From: a virus
Taxonomy: Duplodnaviria > Heunggongvirae > Uroviricota > Caudoviricetes
DNA length: 33,263 bases
Virus record (IMG/VR): IMGVR_UViG_2703718853_000003
Coordinates: 1 to 33,263 of that record
Reading direction: 5' to 3' (one strand)
Shown here: positions 3,123 to 26,301 of the stretch, piece after piece
How positions within the stretch are numbered: the stretch's first letter is position 1
How the letters are laid out: every line of letters starts with the position of its first letter
The notes under the pieces: model-generated
What the model was told of the DNA's origin: nothing
Databases searched by the model: none
What the model saw: only the letters and a program-made list of their open reading frames with translations
Position numbers and translations under genes: made by a program

Positions 3123-3346
3123 TGCCGGACAACGTAGATTTTATTCAGGAACAACAGGCTGAATTACTGGAGCGTCAGATTAACGCGGCAAGGGTAAAAC
3201 ATGGCGGTGCTTCTGCGCTGGTTTGCGAAGAGTGTGACGCGCCAATACCTGCTGCCCGTCGTGCGGCTTACCCGTCAGCCACGCGTTGTGTTTCCTGTCA
3301 GTCAGTCTTTGAAGCAAAAAACAAACATTACCGGAGAACGGCATGA
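3122..3346 (+). CDS. TraR/DksA-family C4 zinc-finger protein (P2 orf82 position)
   Basis: 74 aa with CEECDAPIP...CVSCQ, a C4 zinc finger typical of phage TraR/DksA-like proteins. Start overlaps the upstream stop (TAATG). Confidence 0.7.
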   Translation: MPDNVDFIQEQQAELLERQINAARVKHGGASALVCEECDAPIPAARRAAYPSATRCVSCQSVFEAKNKHYRRTA

Positions 3347-3618
3347 GTATTCGTATTGAAATTGGCGAACGTTATGTCGTTACCAGTGACAGCTTTCAGT
3401 TTATTCTCCACGAGAAAAAGAGAGCGGAAAGCGGTAAAAACGCCGGTCAGGAATGGCTGGCGGTGGTTGGTTATTACCCGAAATTAAGCCAGCTCGTTTC
3501 CGGCCTGATGCATCACGATATTCTGACCGGAAGCGCAAAGTCTTTTGCTGATTTAAACGCGCAGGTTGAGCAACTCAGCAAGCGTTGTTCAGAGGCTTTT
3601 GGCTCATATGGCCGTTAA
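3343..3618 (+). CDS. Early hypothetical protein (P2 orf83 position)
   Basis: 91-aa ORF, ATGA-coupled to the upstream gene. Confidence 0.5.
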   Translation: MSIRIEIGERYVVTSDSFQFILHEKKRAESGKNAGQEWLAVVGYYPKLSQLVSGLMHHDILTGSAKSFADLNAQVEQLSKRCSEAFGSYGR

Positions 3619-5728
3619 AGCCTCCGGGCGTTTTGTCCCTCCGTCAGCATTTGCCGCAGGCACCGGTAAGGCGTTTACCGGTGCTTATGCATGGAACGCG
3701 CCACGCGAGGCTGTCGGGCGCGAAAGACCCCTTACACGTGACGAGATGCGTCAGGTGCAAGGTGTTTTATCCACGATTAACCGCCTGCCTTACTTTTTGC
3801 GCTCGCTGTTTACTTCACGCTATGACTACATCCGGCGCAATAAAAGCCCGGTACACGGGTTTTATTTCCTCACATCCACTTTTCAGCGTCGTTTATGGCC
3901 GCGCATTGAGCGTGTGAATCAGCGCCATGAAATGAACACCGACGCGTCGTTGCTGTTTCTGGCAGAGCGTGACCACTATGCGCGCCTGCCGGGAATGAAT
4001 GACAAGGAGCTGAAAAAGTTTGCCGCCCGTATCTCATCGCAGCTTTTCATGATGTATGAGGAACTCAGCGATGCCTGGGTGGATGCGCATGGCGAAAAAG
4101 AATCGCTGTTTACGGATGAGGCGCAGGCTCACCTGTATGGTCATGTTGCTGGCGCTGCACGTGCTTTCAATATTTCCCCTCTCTACTGGAAAAAATACCG
4201 TAAAGGACAGATGACCACGAGGCAGGCATATTCTGCCATTGCCCGTCTGTTTAACGATGAGTGGTGGACTCATCAGCTTAAAGGCCAGCGTATGCGCTGG
4301 CATGAGGCGTTACTGATTGCTGTCGGGGAGGTCAATAAAGACCGTTCTCCTTATGCCAGTAAACATGCCATTCGTGATGTGCGTGCGCGCCGCCAGGCAA
4401 ATCTGGAATTTCTTAAATCGTGTGACCTTGAAAACAGGGAAACCGGCGAGCGCATCGACCTTATCAGTAAGGTGATGGGCAGTATTTCTAATCCTGAAAT
4501 TCGCCGGATGGAGCTGATGAACACCATTGCCGGTATTGAGCGTTACGCCGCCGCAGAGGGTGATGTGGGGATGTTTATCACGCTGACCGCGCCGTCAAAG
4601 TATCACCCGACACGTCAGGTCGGAAAAGGCGAAAGTAAAACCGTCCAGCTAAATCACGGCTGGAACGATGAGGCATTTAATCCAAAGGATGCGCAGCGTT
4701 ATCTCTGCCGTATCTGGAGCCTGATGCGCACGGCATTCAAGGATAATGACTTACAGGTCTACGGTTTGCGTGTCGTCGAGCCACACCACGACGGAACGCC
4801 GCACTGGCATATGATGCTTTTTTGTAATCCACGCCAGCGTAACCAGATTATTGAAATCATGCGTCGCTACGCGCTCAAAGAGGATGGAGACGAAAGAGGA
4901 GCTGCGCGAAACCGTTTTCAGGCAAAACACCTTAACCGGGGCGGTGCTGCGGGGTATATCGCGAAATACATCTCAAAAAACATCGATGGCTATGCACTGG
5001 ATGGTCAGCTCGATAACGACACCGGCAGGCCGCTGAAAGACACAGCCGCGGCTGTTACCGCATGGGCGTCAACGTGGCGCATACCACAATTTAAAACGGT
5101 TGGCCTGCCGACAATGGGGGCTTACCGTGAACTACGCAAATTGCCCCGCGGCGTCAGCATTGCTGATGAGTTTGACGAGCGCGTCGAGGCTGCACGCGCC
5201 GCCGCAGACAGTGGTGATTTTGCGCTGTATATCAGCGCGCAGGGCGGGGCAAATGTCCCGCGCGATTGTCAGACTGTCAGGGTCGCCCGTAGTCCGTCGG
5301 ATGACGTTAACGAGTACGAGGAAGAAGTCGAGAGAGTGGTCGGCATTTACGCGCCGCATCTCGGCGCGCGTCATATTCATATCACCAGAACGACGGACTG
5401 GCACATTGTGCCGAAAGTTCCGGTCGTTGAGCCTTTGACTTTAAAAAGCGGCATCGCCGCGCCTCGGAGTCCTGTCAATAACTGTGGAAAGCTCTCCGGT
5501 GGTGATGCTTCGTTACCGGCTCCCACACCTTCTGAGCACGCCGCAGCAGTGCTTAATCTGGTTGATGACGGTGTTATCGAATGGAATGACCCGGAGGTCG
5601 TGAGGGCGCTCAGGGGCGCATTAAAACACGGGCTGAGAACGCCAAATCGTCAGCAAGGAAACGGAAGCCCGTTAAAACCACATGAAATAGCACCGTCGGG
5701 CAGATTGAACAGGTGGGAACGATTGTAA
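3608..5728 (+). CDS. A: Replication initiation endonuclease A (rolling-circle HUH nickase)
   Basis: About 706 aa from ATG 3608. Contains HWHMMLF (HUH motif) and a YIAKYISK catalytic-tyrosine motif. The track start at 3566 overlaps the previous gene more, so the internal ATG was preferred. Confidence 0.85.
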   Translation: MAVKASGRFVPPSAFAAGTGKAFTGAYAWNAPREAVGRERPLTRDEMRQVQGVLSTINRLPYFLRSLFTSRYDYIRRNKSPVHGFYFLTSTFQRRLWPRIERVNQRHEMNTDASLLFLAERDHYARLPGMNDKELKKFAARISSQLFMMYEELSDAWVDAHGEKESLFTDEAQAHLYGHVAGAARAFNISPLYWKKYRKGQMTTRQAYSAIARLFNDEWWTHQLKGQRMRWHEALLIAVGEVNKDRSPYASKHAIRDVRARRQANLEFLKSCDLENRETGERIDLISKVMGSISNPEIRRMELMNTIAGIERYAAAEGDVGMFITLTAPSKYHPTRQVGKGESKTVQLNHGWNDEAFNPKDAQRYLCRIWSLMRTAFKDNDLQVYGLRVVEPHHDGTPHWHMMLFCNPRQRNQIIEIMRRYALKEDGDERGAARNRFQAKHLNRGGAAGYIAKYISKNIDGYALDGQLDNDTGRPLKDTAAAVTAWASTWRIPQFKTVGLPTMGAYRELRKLPRGVSIADEFDERVEAARAAADSGDFALYISAQGGANVPRDCQTVRVARSPSDDVNEYEEEVERVVGIYAPHLGARHIHITRTTDWHIVPKVPVVEPLTLKSGIAAPRSPVNNCGKLSGGDASLPAPTPSEHAAAVLNLVDDGVIEWNDPEVVRALRGALKHGLRTPNRQQGNGSPLKPHEIAPSGRLNRWERL

Positions 5729-5949
5729 ATACCCCATATAAGAGTTGTTCTTGCTCAACATGGCATCTGAACGCAAAGATAAAAGCCTGGGAGGCATACA
5801 GATAGTCCTGCTGTAAGTTAGTTGGAAAAAGATTGATTTACTTTATTACAGGAAGCCTCGATAAAATAATTCTAACGTGGATAAGGATATAAATTTATTA
5901 TAATGAATCTGTCAATATTATAATAAATGTTATTTTTAAAGAGATGAAA

Positions 5950-5985
5950 GGTAGGGTTGTTGTTTGTTGGTTTTTGTGATATAAT
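5950..5985 (+). promoter_or_regulatory. Candidate sigma70 promoter with extended -10 (TGaTATAAT) for the cargo ATPase operon
   Basis: TGATATAAT at 5977-5985 with a TTGTTG-like -35 about 18 bp upstream, inside an AT-rich intergenic region about 40 bp before the ATPase start. Confidence 0.4.
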
Positions 5986-6025
5986 ATTAAATTCATGTAA
6001 CTAGTAAATGCAAATGGAAAAAAGC

Positions 6026-7162
6026 ATGAGAATAAAATCACTGGAGACATATAACTCTCACAGTAAATTGAAAATTAATAAAATAGAATTCAAATCACTG
6101 ACCTTATTGGTTGGTGCTTCAGGTGTAGGGAAAACACAAATACTTCGTTCTATCAATAAAATAAAGTCTATCGCACATGGTGATTCCGTTAGTGGGTTTT
6201 GCTGGAACGTTGAGTTTAATGCTGAAGGTAATGATTATCAATGGTCTGGTGAGTTTGAGGCGCTGGAGGATTATGATGATTTTACTTATGGAATGTTTCA
6301 TTTTGATGATGACGACAAGGTTGAACCAAAAATTATAAAAGAAGAAGTTAAAATCAATGGTTCAATTATTATCACCAGAAGTGGCGATGATATCGTTTAT
6401 AATGACAGTAAAACAGTTAAGCTGGCTTCTACAGTTAGTATAGTTCATCACTTGCGTGAGGAAGATGATATTTCGGTTATACACAAGTCATTTTCACGAA
6501 TTGTGCAAGTTGATGATGATGAAATGCATAAGGTGTTTCCTAGAAAAAATAAAGATGCTTCAGAGGATGAAGAGCTTAGCATCAATGATATCAGAGAGAA
6601 GTCATTCTCTTTGAGTGCTAAGTTGTATTTGTGTCAAGAAAAACAACCAGTCTACTTTCATCAAATTAAAAATTCATTTGTGGAGATTTTTCCATATATT
6701 GAAGATATAAAGGTGGTTAAGGTTGATACAAGAGGGATTCCTTTCTTTGTTCATTCTGTATATGCACTCAAGGTTAAGGAAAGAGGGATTGATGAGTGGA
6801 TTTCGCACAATTCAATGTCTACCGGGATGTTGAAAACATTTGTCCAACTGGCATATCTGCATCTTAGCCCGACGGGAACTGTGTTCTTAATTGATGAGTT
6901 CGAGAATGGCTTTGGTGTTAACTGTATTAATGATATAACAGATGTGCTACTACATCATGGTAATGATGTTCAGTTTATTTTGACGAGTCATCATCCTTAT
7001 ATTATAAATAACATACCGCTTGATAACTGGAAAATTATTTCAAGGAAGGCCGGGGTTGTTGATAACTATTCTGCGGATTTTTTTAATTTAAAAGAATCCA
7101 ATCATGAGGCGTTTACTAAATTAATAAATTTAAGCGTTTATTTTGATGGTGCGGATAGATGA
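6026..7162 (+). CDS. ABC/SMC-like P-loop ATPase (AAA_15/AAA_21-like; OLD N-terminal / AriA-like), cargo gene
   Basis: Walker A GASGVGKT, ABC-signature-like SMSTGMLK, Walker B VFLIDEFENG, H-loop-like LTSHHP. The N-terminus MRIKSLE is typical of this ATPase class. Start could also be ATG 6008 or 6014. AT-rich codon usage unlike the backbone. Confidence 0.8.
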   Translation: MRIKSLETYNSHSKLKINKIEFKSLTLLVGASGVGKTQILRSINKIKSIAHGDSVSGFCWNVEFNAEGNDYQWSGEFEALEDYDDFTYGMFHFDDDDKVEPKIIKEEVKINGSIIITRSGDDIVYNDSKTVKLASTVSIVHHLREEDDISVIHKSFSRIVQVDDDEMHKVFPRKNKDASEDEELSINDIREKSFSLSAKLYLCQEKQPVYFHQIKNSFVEIFPYIEDIKVVKVDTRGIPFFVHSVYALKVKERGIDEWISHNSMSTGMLKTFVQLAYLHLSPTGTVFLIDEFENGFGVNCINDITDVLLHHGNDVQFILTSHHPYIINNIPLDNWKIISRKAGVVDNYSADFFNLKESNHEAFTKLINLSVYFDGADR

Positions 7163-7869
7163 ATTTGTATATTTTGGCTGAGGGGCGACAAACAGAGCGC
7201 AGAATCTATCCGGCATGGATAGGCGTTCTATCTCCATCTTTAAAGCAAGTTGAGTGTTTGTCTGCAATAGATAAAAACAACTATTATTTTATAAGCGGCG
7301 AGGGATATCCTCGTATGATTGATGTGACGCTTATTAATGCAATTAAAGATATACATGATAACCCTAAATTTACCGATTTTTGGGTTGTGCTAGACTCTGA
7401 AGGAGAGGATGTTGAGGCAAGGAGAGAGCTTGTTAGAAATAAGATTGATTCTTCTGGTATAGATATATCTCATTGTGAAGTAAATATAATAGTTCAAAAT
7501 CCGTGCATAGAAACGTGGGGGCTAGGGAATCGAGTCATTATTTCGCCAAATAAGTTGACTGAATCTTTTTTGGACTATTATGAGCACTATGATGTGTCAT
7601 CCAATGATCCAGAGGGTATGGGGAAGCCTCTTGCCTATGACGGATCAATTGCTAAGTATCACGAGAGTTATTTAAAAAGTATGCTTGCTTTAAGAAATGC
7701 AATGTATACGAAAAAAAATCCAGCAGCATTGATGGAGCCTTCATATTTGCAACAGCTTATATCCAGAGCTTATGCTGAGGATGGACATATACCAAGCTTT
7801 AGGCATTTTCATACGTTGGCTACTCAGCTTGAGGCTAAAGCGAAAATGTTGGAAAGCCGTGTAGCGTAG
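7159..7869 (+). CDS. Small TOPRIM-like partner protein (DUF4276/DUF4435-like, putative nuclease), cargo gene
   Basis: 236 aa; start ATG overlaps the ATPase stop (ATGA). N-terminal LYILAEG (conserved Glu) and VVLDSEGED (acidic DxE/D cluster) fit a TOPRIM-like signature. The family call is inferred from motifs only. Confidence 0.6.
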   Translation: MNLYILAEGRQTERRIYPAWIGVLSPSLKQVECLSAIDKNNYYFISGEGYPRMIDVTLINAIKDIHDNPKFTDFWVVLDSEGEDVEARRELVRNKIDSSGIDISHCEVNIIVQNPCIETWGLGNRVIISPNKLTESFLDYYEHYDVSSNDPEGMGKPLAYDGSIAKYHESYLKSMLALRNAMYTKKNPAALMEPSYLQQLISRAYAEDGHIPSFRHFHTLATQLEAKAKMLESRVA

Positions 7870-7875
7870 AATTGA

Positions 7876-7919
7876 CGACATCATGCATTTTTGTGCATGA
7901 TGTCGCATTTGTTTTTTTA
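7876..7919 (+). terminator. Rho-independent terminator after the cargo operon
   Basis: 12-bp perfect stem cgacatcatgca / tgcatgatgtcg (7876-7887 and 7894-7905), followed by a T-rich tract ending in seven T. Confidence 0.7.
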
Positions 7920-8003
7920 TGTCCTCTCTAACCAATATTGCTCTGTTCGTTAGTATTTGTAGCGGGCATGCACCTGCATTAAAACCGACCCATGAAGTGG
8001 GCG

Positions 8004-8022
8004 GGCGAGGCGGGGAAAGCAC
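8004..8022. other. cos site (19-nt cohesive end GGCGAGGCGGGGAAAGCAC)
   Basis: Matches the P2 cohesive-end sequence as I remember it, at the expected place between the old/tin region and Q. Confidence 0.6.
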
Positions 8023-8162
8023 TGCGCGCTGGCGGTGGTGCTGATTTTATTTTTTCAGCGTCTCAGCGCGTCGTGATGGCATTTAGTCGGCCTGCAGGGG
8101 CGTTGGTGTGTCTGCGGGGTGTTTTGTGCGGTGGTGAGCGTGTGAGGGCGTGATGACGGGGT

Positions 8163-8187
8163 GTAAAAAAGCCGCCCGCAGGCGGCG
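8163..8187 (-). terminator. Rho-independent terminator downstream of Q (minus strand)
   Basis: gccgcc-cgca-ggcggc hairpin at 8171-8186; on the minus strand it is followed by a six-T run (plus-strand A-run 8165-8170), immediately 3' of the Q stop. Confidence 0.6.
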
Positions 8188-8191
8188 TTGT

Positions 8192-9226
8192 TCAGTCGTT
8201 GTCAGTGTCCAGTGAGTAGTTTTTAAAGCGGATGACCTCCTGACCGAGCCAGCCGTTTATCTCGCGGATCCTGTCCTGTAACGGGATAAGCTCATTGCGG
8301 ACAAAGACCTTTGCCACTTTCTCAATATCCCCCAGTGACCCGACGTTCTCCGGCTTGCCGCCCATCAACTGAAAGGGGATGCGGTGTGCGTCCAGCAGAT
8401 CTGCGGCGCTGACTTTTTTGATATTAAAAAAATCGTCCTTCGTTGCCACTTCACTGAGCGGGATAATTTTAATGCCGTCGGCTTTCCCCTGTGGGGCATA
8501 GAGAAACAGATTTTTAAAGTTGTTGCGGCCTTTCGACTTAACCATGTTTTCGCGAAGCATTTCGATATCGTTGCGATCCTGCACGGCATCGGTGACGTAC
8601 ATGATATATCCGGCATGAGCACCGTTTTCGTAATACTTGCGGCGAAACAGCGTGGCCGACTCATTCAGCCAGGCAGAGTTAAGGGCGCTGAGATATTCCG
8701 GCAGGCCGTACAGCTCCTGATTAATATCCGGCTCCAGCAGGTGAAACACGGAGCCGGGCGTGAAAGGTGTCGGCTCGTTGAAGGACGGCACCCACCAGTA
8801 AACATCCTCCTCCACGCCACGGCGGGTATATTTTGCCGGTGAGGTTTCCAGTCTGATGACCTTACCGGTGGTGCTGTAACGCTTTTCCAGAAACGCATTA
8901 CCGAACACCAGAAAATCCAGCACAAAGCGGCTGAAATCCTGCTGAGAAAGCCACGGATGCGGGATAAATGTTGAGGCCAGAATATTACGTTTGACGTAAA
9001 TCGGTGAGCTGTGATGCACGGCAGCACGCAGGCTTTTTGCCAGACCGGTAAAGCTGACCGGTGGCTCATACCATCTGCCGTTACTGATGCACTCGACGTA
9101 ATCCAGAATGTCACGGCGGTCGAGTACCGGCACCGGCTCACCAAAGGTGAATGCCTCCATTTTCGGGGCGCTGGCGGTCATTGTTTTTGCCGCAGGTCGC
9201 GGTGTTTTCCCTTTTTTCTTGCTCAT
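8192..9226 (-). CDS. Q: Portal protein (gpQ)
   Basis: 344 aa, the length I recall for P2 Q; minus strand next to cos, directly downstream of P. Confidence 0.85.
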   Translation of the reverse strand: MSKKKGKTPRPAAKTMTASAPKMEAFTFGEPVPVLDRRDILDYVECISNGRWYEPPVSFTGLAKSLRAAVHHSSPIYVKRNILASTFIPHPWLSQQDFSRFVLDFLVFGNAFLEKRYSTTGKVIRLETSPAKYTRRGVEEDVYWWVPSFNEPTPFTPGSVFHLLEPDINQELYGLPEYLSALNSAWLNESATLFRRKYYENGAHAGYIMYVTDAVQDRNDIEMLRENMVKSKGRNNFKNLFLYAPQGKADGIKIIPLSEVATKDDFFNIKKVSAADLLDAHRIPFQLMGGKPENVGSLGDIEKVAKVFVRNELIPLQDRIREINGWLGQEVIRFKNYSLDTDND

Positions 9227-23592: not shown

Positions 23593-24267
23593 TTATTTAA
23601 TGATTTTAAAAAGTTCATTGTAGCTACAACCTTTGAATATTTCGAACTGATCATGGTAATTTGAATAAGCGCTTGCCATCATTCCGATATAACTATCCCA
23701 TGATGACTCAGAAACTACCCTTTCACCACGCTCTAATTCATCAATTAAAATATAAATAATATTAAATTGTGCAACAAGAGCAGTGTAGGTGGTGATGAGA
23801 TTATTTAGAAGGTCTGAATGATTAGGTTTGATTTTCCACAAACCAAAACTATCCCGAATTGCAACTAATTCGAATCGTAAATCTTTTGACTCAGAAAGTA
23901 ACTCCCTCCCACTTGTAGTGAGATGCTTGTAGAGTATGGGGTTCTCACTTTTTATTCTTGGCTGTATAGAAATAAGTGATTGATAACATTGATGATTTAA
24001 GTCCTTTGATCGAAACATGCTGTCGATGAACAATGTAGTTCTCTCGAAAGCCTTTTCTGATTTTTTGTTTTTAATCCATTCATTTACCCTTGTTAATGCA
24101 TAAATCGCTAGTCCAAGTGTTATTGTTGAAACTGTTGCAGTAATTGTTGATGGTTCAATTTTTTTAAAAAACCAGATATCAATCCATGCAAAAGAGACTG
24201 AGCCGAGATACATAAACAACATGTGACTCGCGAAGTATTCCCAAACACCTTTTAAATAGCTTTTCAT
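23593..24267 (-). CDS. Small membrane protein (two predicted N-terminal TM helices), cargo gene of unknown function
   Basis: AT-rich minus-strand ORF. The second ATG (24267) is preceded by AAGGA; the first ATG is at 24282. Hydrophobic stretches HMLFMYLGSVSFAWIDIWFF and ITATVSTITLGLAIYAL. A TATAAT-like -10 lies just upstream on the minus strand (plus 24290-24295). Confidence 0.6.
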   Translation of the reverse strand: MKSYLKGVWEYFASHMLFMYLGSVSFAWIDIWFFKKIEPSTITATVSTITLGLAIYALTRVNEWIKNKKSEKAFERTTLFIDSMFRSKDLNHQCYQSLISIQPRIKSENPILYKHLTTSGRELLSESKDLRFELVAIRDSFGLWKIKPNHSDLLNNLITTYTALVAQFNIIYILIDELERGERVVSESSWDSYIGMMASAYSNYHDQFEIFKGCSYNELFKIIK

Positions 24268-24443
24268 GTAGATCCTTAACATTTTCTTAATTATATTTTA
24301 TGGTGGTATTTTTGTTAGTATCGGCATGGATTAGAAATAGTTGATACTTTTATGCCCTGAGAGCATGAAAACTGGAAAAGCCTTGCTCATGATATAAATA
24401 GTGTTAGTTGCCACTGCTTTGGAAGTTATCCTTTAAATGGGCT

Positions 24444-24700
24444 ATCGGAAAGCCAGACTTCTAGCAGATGCTGAATCCGTGATTTTGCCGCTGGAGCGCG
24501 CTGTCAGGCTGAATATGGCAACAGATGAGGAGCGCAGTCGACTGGAGGCATGGGAACGCTACAGCGTTCTGGTCAGTCGTGTGGATCCTGCAAATCCTGA
24601 ATGGCCGGAAATGCCGCAAGAAGTTGTATGAGCTCTGGTGTGAACTTACATATCTATGGCACAGAGTAAAGCCTAATCTGACAGTCCGCTCTGTGCCGAA
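24444..24700 (+). repeat. Degenerate direct duplicate of the 3' end of G plus its downstream sequence (G' remnant)
   Basis: About 250 bp highly similar to 23236-23490. The encoded [57 protein letters not shown] copies the G C-terminus, with the G stop changed to a sense codon. Not an independent gene. Confidence 0.8.
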
Positions 24701-24921
24701 GCTAGCAAAGCCATGGTCCTTTCGCAGCAAGTTGCGTAAATAAGGCGTTTTTATCTCTTGAAGCATTCTACAAAGCCAACTCCTCGCTCAAACAGACGTG
24801 TCTGTTCAGCAATCTGCCCGCTTGGTATCAAGGGACGCCAGTAACGCGATACCGGGTGAATTCCTTCCTTAACTGCCCTCACATCATCTTTAATAATAGT
24901 TTACCCTGATATAACGGATGA

Positions 24922-26301
24922 TCAGAAGTCAATCAGGTCATCGAATTTCTGAGGTGGCTCTTGTTTTCGAACGCTATCTCCCTGATGAATCTCCGTCTCA
25001 CTTGTTTGGTATTTTACACCAGTAATTTTATGATAAGTCATACTGTTGGTTTTCAACAGTAGTGCATCATTTTTGTCATGCGAGGATGAAAATGAACCCA
25101 TATGTCTCGGTTTTATTTGTTCCTCAACTATCAACTGAATTTCCGGAACAAAAGCATACTGGTCATCTTCGATGTGTTCATACATCTCAACATTATATCG
25201 GCGAGATTTATCTGCGGCATGCCTGACGCCGGAAGACTTATTAAACAGAACGACATTATATCCTGTCTCAGCATCCTCACCGTTGGCATCTACCTGGGTA
25301 GATTTAAAGCTGACACCATCAAGCTTAAATTTATTTCGGTCACCTAGGTAATCGGCAACCACTTGGGTGATGAGGTAATCACTGTCCTGCCTTTTTCCAA
25401 AAGTAGGAAGCGTCAACTTACGGGAAAGCGTACTGAAAAAAATCGCGCGCTCACTGGTTTTGCGAGTCTGAGGATCAAATTTACTACCTGAGCCGAAACT
25501 AATCGAGTCAAGGGCAGAAATGTCCAGCACTTTTAGCTCGCGTAACGGTATAAAACAGGCCGTTACTACAATACTGCCGACGGGCGGCCTTACTTCAGCA
25601 ATTGCCAAATTCACTGAGGTTGCACCGTAAAATACTGAAATCCCCTGTGCGTTCATACGGCCCGACCGAGCCAAAGTTGTTGGGGGAGGTCCAAAATTTT
25701 TCTCGGGATGCTCCAAGGCTTGCTTTACTTCCTCTTGGTCCTCAAAAACCCTTGCACGAAAAAGATGAACCTCATCAGTCAGAGTTTTTATCGGTGAATT
25801 ACTGTCTCTGTTTTTTAGTTTATCGATATCACTGAAAAGTGAATCCAGGAAATCATTAACTTCACGGTTAAAATATCGTGTTTCTTTCATAAGGGAGTCA
25901 GTGGCTTTACTCCAGGTATGCGCAAGCTCTCCGCTATAGTGATTTATGTGCCGATAAAGAAACCCGTCATTATACCGGATGTAGTCATAATCGTTATGCG
26001 GATTATATTCATCACAAAGAAGTTCATAAATATCTTCAGCTACGTCCCATTCGACGCCCAGTTCTCCGTAGATGACATCCTGCGCGCTATCACCGCGCCC
26101 GGAATCATAGATATCCTCATATATATCATAATAGTACTCAAAAACCTCATTCATCATCTTGAGAATATATTTGAGGTGGATGTTTTTACGCTTCCTTTTG
26201 CAGTAAGAGCAAATCTGAAAATTATTTCCAGTTTTTATTATATGCTGCATGACATATTTATCGTTCACGCATTTATGACAAATATACTTATCTTCCCACA
26301 T
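24922..26301 (-). CDS. RES-domain protein with N-terminal zinc ribbon (candidate NAD+-targeting abortive-infection effector), cargo gene
   Basis: 459 aa, AT-rich, minus strand. N-terminal CHKC-x19-CSYC zinc ribbon. RES signature LFRARV ... SGRMNAQGISVFYGATSVNLAIAEV ... DGVSFKS...GYNVVLFN at about aa 178-356 (roughly nt 25234-25770). Domain call is by motif recognition only. Confidence 0.65.
   Translation of the reverse strand: MWEDKYICHKCVNDKYVMQHIIKTGNNFQICSYCKRKRKNIHLKYILKMMNEVFEYYYDIYEDIYDSGRGDSAQDVIYGELGVEWDVAEDIYELLCDEYNPHNDYDYIRYNDGFLYRHINHYSGELAHTWSKATDSLMKETRYFNREVNDFLDSLFSDIDKLKNRDSNSPIKTLTDEVHLFRARVFEDQEEVKQALEHPEKNFGPPPTTLARSGRMNAQGISVFYGATSVNLAIAEVRPPVGSIVVTACFIPLRELKVLDISALDSISFGSGSKFDPQTRKTSERAIFFSTLSRKLTLPTFGKRQDSDYLITQVVADYLGDRNKFKLDGVSFKSTQVDANGEDAETGYNVVLFNKSSGVRHAADKSRRYNVEMYEHIEDDQYAFVPEIQLIVEEQIKPRHMGSFSSSHDKNDALLLKTNSMTYHKITGVKYQTSETEIHQGDSVRKQEPPQKFDDLIDF

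Follow-up and report, generated by a model that had tools for sequence, protein, structure and literature searches.

A two-gene ABC ATPase and OLD-type TOPRIM cassette as candidate defence cargo in the gpA–cos hotspot of a P2-like prophage

What is the role of a pair of AT-rich genes that a P2-like prophage carries between its replication gene A and its cos site? The question is raised by the IMG/VR virus record IMGVR_UViG_2703718853_000003 (Caudoviricetes), of which positions 1 to 33,263 were analyzed here as one window; this window comprises a whole P2-like prophage. An initial annotation, made from the letters of the DNA, had proposed that the pair, an ATPase and a TOPRIM-like protein, is a split OLD-like or PARIS-like defence system. 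According to our analysis, the cassette is probably a self-contained module of an ABC ATPase and an OLD-type TOPRIM nuclease that is carried as accessory cargo in the gpA–cos hotspot. The architecture and the folds described below can be given with very high confidence, and a role in defence or abortive infection, argued by analogy with better known systems, is likely.

The position of the cassette is well defined by comparison with P2. Gene A and its upstream neighbours show 97.7% DNA identity to P2 up to position 5725, homology to P2-like phages returns at ~7964 (7964–7969), and the flanks of the insert are 95–98% identical to P2-like phages. The GC content is 0.29–0.38 over ~5700–7900 vs 0.52–0.59 in both flanks, in agreement with the AT-rich island that had been described between gene A and cos. 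The limits of this island, first placed at 5729–7920, needed correction: the foreign AT-rich cargo extends from ~5851 to 7963, whereas the stretch from 5729 to ~5850 derives by decay from the 3' end of gpA. The identification of the locus as the P2 tin/old hotspot was correct, since in the P2 record orf91, tin and old occupy the equivalent position between gene A and cos. The role of this locus as a store of defence genes in P2-like phages is documented (PMC9122126; PMC9519451); the curation of Rousset et al. (PMC9122126) was limited to arrangements that occurred 10 times or more. As is typical of such cargo, the window has a variable insert between gene A and cos/portal gene Q. Among 5,426 complete E. 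coli genomes, one contains the cassette, with its genes annotated as "AAA family ATPase" and "hypothetical protein," and no DNA match was found among 50,697 phage records.

The island contains two co-oriented intact open reading frames (ORFs) on the plus strand, 6008–7162 (384 aa) and 7159–7869 (236 aa), which overlap by the 4 nt ATGA, as originally noted. Three in-frame ATG codons lie near the start of the first gene, at 6008, 6014 and 6026. The mechanical ORF begins at 6008, and the RefSeq/PGAP start in a near-identical E. coli record is 6014. The homologues from six loci all start at the equivalent of 6026 (MRIKS/MKIKS), and because all of them begin there, the ATG at 6026 is most likely the true start, which gives a gene of 6026–7162 and a predicted protein of 378 aa (MRIKS...).

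The first gene is predicted, from its motifs and its modelled fold, to encode a catalytically complete ABC ATPase of the Rad50/SMC-head type. The protein matches Pfam AAA_21 (PF13304) with 57.3 bits, above the gathering score of 27, and covers the profile from 1 to 304 of 304. All the motifs on which the ABC/SMC-type assignment had been based (GASGVGKT, SMSTGMLK, VFLIDEFE and TSHH) are present, and they are conserved among 35 homologues with 39–96% identity, in which the patterns GxSGVGKT, SxGM, LxDEFENxxG and TSHH are invariant. Specifically, no variation occurs at G30, S32, G33, V34, G35, K36 and T37 of the Walker A motif GASGVGKT (6113–6136, with K36), at S265, G267 and M268 of the ABC signature-like SMSTGMLK (6812–6835), at L288, D290, E291, F292, E293, N294 and G297 of the Walker B motif VFLIDE (D290, E291) with the D-loop FENGFG (6881–6916), or at T320, S321, H322 and H323 of the H-loop TSHH (6983–6994), all on the plus strand. 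The fold is Rad50/SMC/AriA/PtuA-like, with the Rad50/SMC heads closest. The model places the protein in the defence-associated ABC clade and does not discriminate inside this clade. A comparison with PDB sequences gave no informative match; NCBIfam returned only ABC-transporter P-loop matches far below their cutoffs, and PHROGs only unnamed families. Among the PADLOC models, AbiLi scored best (8.3e-19), with generic AAA_21-type models slightly below it; further matches were to AriA (1.1e-14), HEC-01A (3.7e-14), mad3 (8.5e-10) and NsnB (3.5e-9).

The product of the second gene (7159–7869) is predicted to adopt a TOPRIM fold, whose two-metal acidic site is complete, and to carry a helical domain at its C-terminus. 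The AlphaFold2 model has a mean pLDDT (predicted local distance difference test) score of 95.2 and a predicted template modelling (pTM) score of 0.91, and consists of beta1 (residues 3–7), an alpha helix (12–24), a beta strand (41–46), alpha, beta3 (73–79), alpha, beta4 (107–113) and then the helical domain. The Toprim superfamily is defined by a glutamate after beta1 and DxD after beta3 (PMC12065111); the model shows the three-layer alpha/beta fold with the glutamate after beta1, DxD/E after beta3 and extra acidic ligands. The acidic positions E8, E13, D79, D/E81 and E118, some of which had been recognized initially in ILAEG and LDSEGED, are conserved in 97–100% of 147 family representatives (28–51% identity to the query). 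The glutamates E8 at the end of beta1 (in ILAEG) and E13 (7180–7197) occur in 144 and 142 of them. D79 of the D79-S-E81 motif at the end of beta3 (7393–7401) occurs in all 147, with D or E at position 81 in 99%. In the CIETW motif after beta4 (7504–7518), the third-site glutamate E118 is kept in 145 representatives, C116 in 140 and W120 in 145. A further conserved set in the helical domain (D150-P151-E152, H168, Y171, Y183, K185 and R203; 7606–7770), each residue being present in at least 87% of the 147, possibly takes part in substrate binding.

In the fold comparison, the TOPRIM and helical regions of the partner were closest to BpOLD (6nk8) and TsOLD (6p74). This comparison alone was informative: a Foldseek search with the model found nothing, and the partner profile gave only chance-level matches to PDB sequences (E ~0.5). 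The confident model and the conserved acidic set bear out the TOPRIM-like character that had been proposed, and the absence of such a fold, which the initial annotation had allowed for, is not what was found. Family profiles place the protein less clearly. With Pfam RloB (PF13707), it scores 19.3 bits (E 1.4e-3, residues 59–122 only), below the gathering score of 31.5; there is no match to DUF4276 (PF14103) at E ≤ 1, and the sole PADLOC match is a weak one to AbiLii (8.5e-6, profile positions 32–63 of 170). Neither the partner nor any of its 33 relatives matched the DUF4435 or AriB models. Among these relatives, Pfam RloB was matched by 20 (weakly, best 3.2e-6), DUF4276 by seven (best 2.2e-6), and DUF3226 and OLD-like_TOPRIM by two each (best 1.3e-3 for the latter). 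Thus, of the profile searches suggested at the outset, that with AAA_21 succeeded, and those with DUF4435 and DUF4276 gave no match for the window partner; the matches among its relatives agree with the early suggestion of a possibly distinct family of the AAA_21 + DUF4276 type.

When clustered at 90% identity, the partner family falls into 1,088 clusters; at 50%, it has 805 representatives at E ≤ 1e-3 and 382 at E ≤ 1e-30. Among the matches listed, 150 representatives are 163–254 aa long, and none is fused to an ATPase. Members are mostly annotated as "hypothetical," most have no Pfam annotation, and several are named "DUF4276 family protein." The cyanobacteria Nostoc, Tolypothrix and Anabaena contribute many members, and Firmicutes, Bacteroidota and Proteobacteria contribute others. 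At each of the 15 loci studied, ranging from Brevibacillus to Enterobacterales, an AAA_21 ATPase of 370–382 aa lies directly upstream of the partner gene, usually with the 4-nt overlap. In 10 of these 15 loci, the pair is bordered by gpA and the portal gene of a P2-like element; the gpA and portal proteins of these elements are 32–99% and 63–99% identical to those of the window. The other loci lie beside a lambdoid integrase, in two-gene chromosomal islets, or on short contigs with little flank (L003, L015). Separate tblastn searches found the partner on seven plasmids, with small plasmids of 9–15 kb, and on one unannotated faecal viral contig. The GC content of the module is 0.29–0.40 whatever the host, and both genes are intact, without internal stops, in every locus. 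The identities of ATPase and partner track each other across loci (87/75, 62/55, 50/51, 47/48, 40/36 and 39/40%). The ratio of nonsynonymous to synonymous substitution rates (dN/dS) of the ATPase is ~0.04 against the Klebsiella copy, and the partner has a dN of 0.18 with saturated dS; since dS was saturated in most comparisons, dN/dS can be quoted for some pairs only. The two genes are under purifying selection, co-diverge, and travel together among prophages, small plasmids and chromosomal islets. Their pairing, spread, intactness, selection and tracking of identities together show a conserved, mobile and co-inherited functional unit.

In several of the P2-like elements (L004, L006–L010 and L014), the module lies at the gpA/portal junction with an ATPase 49–92% identical to that of the window, while gpA is only 32–62% identical. 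Recurrence at this junction, including phages with replication proteins only ~35% identical, points to an old association with the hotspot or to repeated capture. In some of these elements, one or two additional short ORFs (57–87 aa) separate gpA from the ATPase gene; none is present in the window.

The integrity of the pair bears on the question of whether the cassette is a fragment of a larger system, such as the restriction–modification (R-M)-linked RloAB, MADS (Mad3/Mad4), Menshen or the Hma-embedded HEC-01. The PADLOC matches of the ATPase to mad3, NsnB and HEC-01A would fit such an origin, and some family members match HEC-01B (6 of 33 partner relatives) and one matches mad4. Likewise, relatives match PH0156/DUF3226 (PDB 2p62) and DUF4276, the family of Mad4 of MADS and of some Menshen NsnC proteins; the window partner falls below either model. 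Nevertheless, the ATPase reaches only 21 bits with the NCBIfam MAD3 model, whose cutoff is 420, and the conserved unit in the 15 loci is the pair alone. MADS and Menshen consist of more than two genes. They and R-M-linked RloAB were rejected because the interval from gpA to cos holds just two genes, with no companion methyltransferase, restriction or ParB-DUF262 genes. HEC-01, a PADLOC Hma-embedded candidate with the same architecture of ABC ATPase and TOPRIM, was rejected because the window partner has no HEC-01B match and no Hma genes lie nearby. We therefore consider the fragment hypothesis hardly credible.

The cassette also has its own candidate expression signals. A pattern search found an exact extended −10 element, TGATATAAT, at 5977–5985 on the plus strand, ~40 nt upstream of the likely ATPase start. 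This is the sole match to TGNTATAAT in the window, with 0.69 matches expected by chance over its whole length, and the Klebsiella homologue has a similar element, TGTGGCATAAT, at the aligned position. A generic sigma-70 scan did not flag the site, because the −35 element is weak. Accordingly, of the extended −10 promoter first reported here, the exact match is confirmed and the element is a plausible candidate promoter, suggestive only and not significant on its own. The terminator reported with it is well formed: a hairpin with a 13-bp stem and a 4-nt loop (7876–7905) is followed by a T-run, and the whole site (7876–7917, plus strand) is the strongest of the region among five terminator-like sites, vs 1.8 expected. 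An Rfam scan of 5500–8300 found no RNA family and hence no sign of an RNA antitoxin or riboswitch. Since no terminator is predicted between gene A and the cassette, and both point in the same direction, the cassette may be expressed by read-through of the early operon in lytic growth and from its own promoter in the lysogen.

The same orientation, with no predicted terminator in between, could suggest that the pair is a replication or recombination accessory of the phage, an analogue of RecF/RecR located next to gene A and cos; a Toprim domain is present in RecR. However, the pair is not confined to phages, as a Brevibacillus chromosome and plasmids also carry it, and the AT-rich foreign composition of the cassette marks it as cargo. 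Moreover, because it is absent from P2 and, at the DNA level, from the phage records searched, and occurs in a single complete E. coli genome, the cassette is not a core phage function. The probability that it is a replication accessory is in our opinion very small.

Among the named systems, the nearest are AbiL of Lactococcus lactis and the Campylobacter R-M-linked RloA/RloB, which share with the cassette the order of an AAA_21-type ABC ATPase followed by a small RloB/OLD-type TOPRIM protein. AbiLi was the top model for all 35 family ATPases, and AbiLii was the most-matched partner model (30 of 33 relatives, best 2.3e-8). As in AbiL, the genes are adjacent and co-oriented, with the 4-nt overlap and an order that is kept in 15 of 15 loci, and the ATPase is of the AbiLi type by hidden Markov model. 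AbiLii superimposes on OLD C-terminal regions and not convincingly on AriB (PMC13064643), and the cassette partner behaves likewise. The cassette differs in host and vehicle, being carried by a P2-like prophage of enterobacteria and not by a plasmid of Lactococcus, and it has no R-M genes. Because the similarity is remote and the partner scores below the RloB gathering score, we file the cassette, on the basis of its sequences, as an AbiL-like sister family within the class of ABC ATPase + OLD-type TOPRIM systems, and not as AbiL proper. Earlier papers (PMC13064643; PMC11464382) already name AbiL and RloAB, together with "an unnamed two-gene system in Nostoc," among the ATPase + TOPRIM systems with an open mode of action. 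In consequence, the original placement of the cassette as split OLD-like or PARIS-like holds as far as the ATPase + TOPRIM class is concerned; it does not hold for the particular systems, as the partner has no DUF4435 and is not part of a fused OLD.

The resemblance to PARIS deserves separate consideration, since a bona fide PARIS would consist of an AriA sensor hexamer that sequesters AriB, a DUF4435 TOPRIM tRNase. Both have an ABC ATPase and a separate TOPRIM effector, with the ATPase gene first, and both are carried in P2/P4 hotspots. The cassette ATPase is of the AAA_15/AAA_21 kind expected of AriA, and the PADLOC AriA model matches all 35 family ATPases. The two-metal set of AriB comprises E26, D30, D88, E90 and E122 (PMC11464382), and five acidic residues are found in the same order in AriB and in the cassette partner. 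However, the AriA model is generic, because it covers 1–304 of 304 exactly as Pfam AAA_21 does, and Rad50, SMC and retron ATPases score equal to or better than AriA in the fold comparison. AriB belongs to DUF4435, for which, as stated above, neither the partner nor its 33 relatives gave a signal. The sizes differ as well: AriB is reported as 35 kDa, vs ~27 kDa (236 aa) for the cassette partner, and AriA is ~55 kDa, vs 378 aa for the cassette ATPase, which therefore probably has other inserts than those from which the AriA hexamer is built. It is thus very improbable that the cassette is PARIS itself. As a mechanistic template for it, by analogy, PARIS is still the best one, with sequestration, trigger-dependent release and tRNA cleavage.

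With OLD, the cassette shares the logic of ATPase plus TOPRIM, and it sits where P2 carries old. P2 OLD, in contrast, is a single fused polypeptide encoded on the opposite strand, whereas the cassette consists of two separate, translationally coupled genes. The OLD family (class 1/2) was rejected because it requires a fused polypeptide and the cassette has two ORFs, each with its own start and stop. At the sequence level, the likeness of the partner family to OLD is marginal (OLD-like_TOPRIM in 2 of the 33 relatives).

How such a module would act can be outlined by analogy with PARIS, P2 OLD and the toxin–antitoxin pairs of AAA and TOPRIM proteins described by NetFlax. In PARIS, the AriA hexamer sequesters AriB, and ATP-dependent binding of the trigger frees AriB, which forms a dimer and cleaves tRNA-Lys (PMC11464382). 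P2 OLD has been reported as an abortive tRNase that opens when its tetramer is destabilized (bioRxiv 10.64898/2026.07.10.737580). In the cassette, translationally coupled expression in the lysogen would yield an ATPase oligomer that holds the nuclease inactive, so that the product of 6026–7162 would be both the sensor and the nuclease-restraining subunit and the product of 7159–7869 a metal-dependent nuclease effector. The ATPase would sense, in an ATP-dependent manner, either a product of the infecting phage or a nucleic acid of aberrant structure; the nuclease would then be released or unmasked and would cut an essential host nucleic acid, tRNA or DNA. Growth of the host cell would be arrested and the infection aborted, protecting the lysogen population and the prophage.

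A similar gene arrangement is, however, known from toxin–antitoxin systems, and the cassette might be an addiction module that stabilizes prophages or plasmids, with the TOPRIM protein as toxin, the ATPase as antitoxin and no dedicated phage sensing. NetFlax validated pairs of AAA antitoxins and TOPRIM_OLD toxins in which a bicistronic ATPase (node D29) neutralizes the TOPRIM-type toxin (TOPRIM_OLD/RloB, node D44), the RloB node being tied to the same hub (PMC10440598). The occurrence of the module on small plasmids of 9–15 kb would also suit an addiction role, as would the result for HEC-01, which gave no protection against a BASEL subset and classic coliphages (bioRxiv 10.1101/2024.01.29.577857). 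On the other hand, the cassette lies in a hotspot dominated by anti-phage cargo, and AbiL protects Lactococcus (PMC13064643). In addition, PARIS behaves as a toxin–antitoxin pair and is nonetheless a defence system (PMC13064643), and the two roles are compatible. We regard a purely addictive function as improbable and retain the defence or abortive-infection role.

With respect to the substrate of this putative defence module, tRNA is the most likely candidate and DNA the alternative, because AriB and P2 OLD have now been described as tRNases; the assignment of tRNA, made by analogy, is tentative. The same module with an effector that attacks phage or host DNA by nicking or degradation, in the way put forward for GajA of Gabija and for OLD nucleases in vitro, is rather unlikely, though several observations speak for it. 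The best structural matches of the partner, 6nk8 and 6p74, are OLD-family proteins crystallized as DNA nucleases, GajA has been described as an ATP-regulated DNA endonuclease (PMC10440598), and the ATPase is most like the DNA-binding Rad50/SMC heads. Against this, both effectors of the class whose in vivo targets have been determined, AriB and P2 OLD, cleave tRNA. The sequence itself does not decide between the two substrates.

Several points weigh against the proposed function and should be kept in mind. The negative result for HEC-01 cited above is one of them. The matches of the partner to AbiLii (8.5e-6, over a small part of the profile) and to RloB (19.3 vs 31.5 bits) are weak, which makes the transfer of function from AbiL a long step; the mechanism of AbiL is itself unknown (PMC13064643). 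Furthermore, the promoter is proposed from its match to the consensus only, DNA too is cut in vitro by enzymes of the OLD family, and our literature search turned up no paper testing this exact family.

The remaining observations concern the prophage that carries the cassette. Its replication gene A (3608–5728, plus strand) encodes a C-terminally shortened gpA of 706 aa, vs 761 aa in P2; in the alignment, it is without the conserved tail of ~45–56 aa that is kept by P2, pro147 and 10W. A TAA codon at 5726–5728 takes the place of a CAG/CAA codon of these phages. The following ~120 nt (5729–5850, plus strand) are a stop-ridden remnant of the tail, which reads IPHIRVVLAQHGI and then stop and is ~60–65% identical to the A tails of P2, pro147 and 10W. 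The truncation is common to all other copies of the cassette lineage (L001, L012 and L013), namely E. coli 23CRST009 and two IMG/VR contigs with an identical cassette, and RefSeq labels gpA a pseudogene in E. coli 23CRST009. Judging from the sequence, the truncation may render the prophage defective in replication, or gpA may not need the tail. The prophage of E. coli 23CRST009 (L001, 5870–6877) has a gene for a PAPS-reductase-domain protein just upstream of gene A, which is absent from the window (~3340–3610); because only the former has it, the two prophages combine an identical hotspot cargo with a different early region elsewhere.

Downstream of the cassette, the 19-mer GGCGAGGCGGGGAAAGCAC, which we take to be the cohesive end of P2 cos, is found as an exact match at 8004–8022 on the plus strand. 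This position agrees with that of cosR at the end of the P2 record. A 53-aa "hypothetical protein" that RefSeq places at 7992–8153 in the near-identical E. coli record overlaps cos and the GC-rich backbone and is probably a spurious call. The portal protein gene Q follows at 8192–9226 on the minus strand and is annotated as phage portal protein in a 99.8%-identical E. coli record. At the second P2 hotspot (the Z/fun position, between the tail-fibre genes H/G and the tail sheath gene FI), three minus-strand ORFs of lower GC content occupy 23593–26301. The 459-aa product of the first matches the Pfam RES domain at 4.2e-14, which exceeds the gathering score, and HEPN_RES_NTD1 below threshold; the other two (101 aa and 229 aa) have no Pfam match, and no PADLOC model matches any of the three. 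On this basis, the Z/fun ORFs are a candidate second toxin or defence locus.

Overall, our analysis indicates that the cassette is expected hotspot cargo, an uncharacterized member of a well-known class rather than a new kind of system. The systems that combine an ABC ATPase with TOPRIM (OLD, Gabija, PARIS and AbiL) form a major class of immunity, in which triggers and targets have been worked out for PARIS and OLD only, and the AbiL/RloAB-like branch has no known mechanism, the single recent test, that of HEC-01, being negative. It is doubtful, although conceivable, that the family represents a mechanistically distinct defence system with a new class of trigger and a new substrate, and not a copy of PARIS or OLD. 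If so, the compact ABC ATPase, with its different inserts, would sense the new trigger class; the helical-domain cluster (DPE150–152, H168, Y171, Y183-x-K185 and R203) would specify the new substrate; and the repeated capture at gpA/cos in very divergent phages would reflect a part in competition among P2-like phages or with P4-type satellites.

In conclusion, the cassette puts a member of a large and mostly unannotated sub-family into an E. coli P2-like prophage. Because old, tin and PARIS have been dissected in the same setting, its function, trigger and substrate are directly testable with coliphage panels, and it adds a data point on the exchange of cargo at the P2 hotspot.

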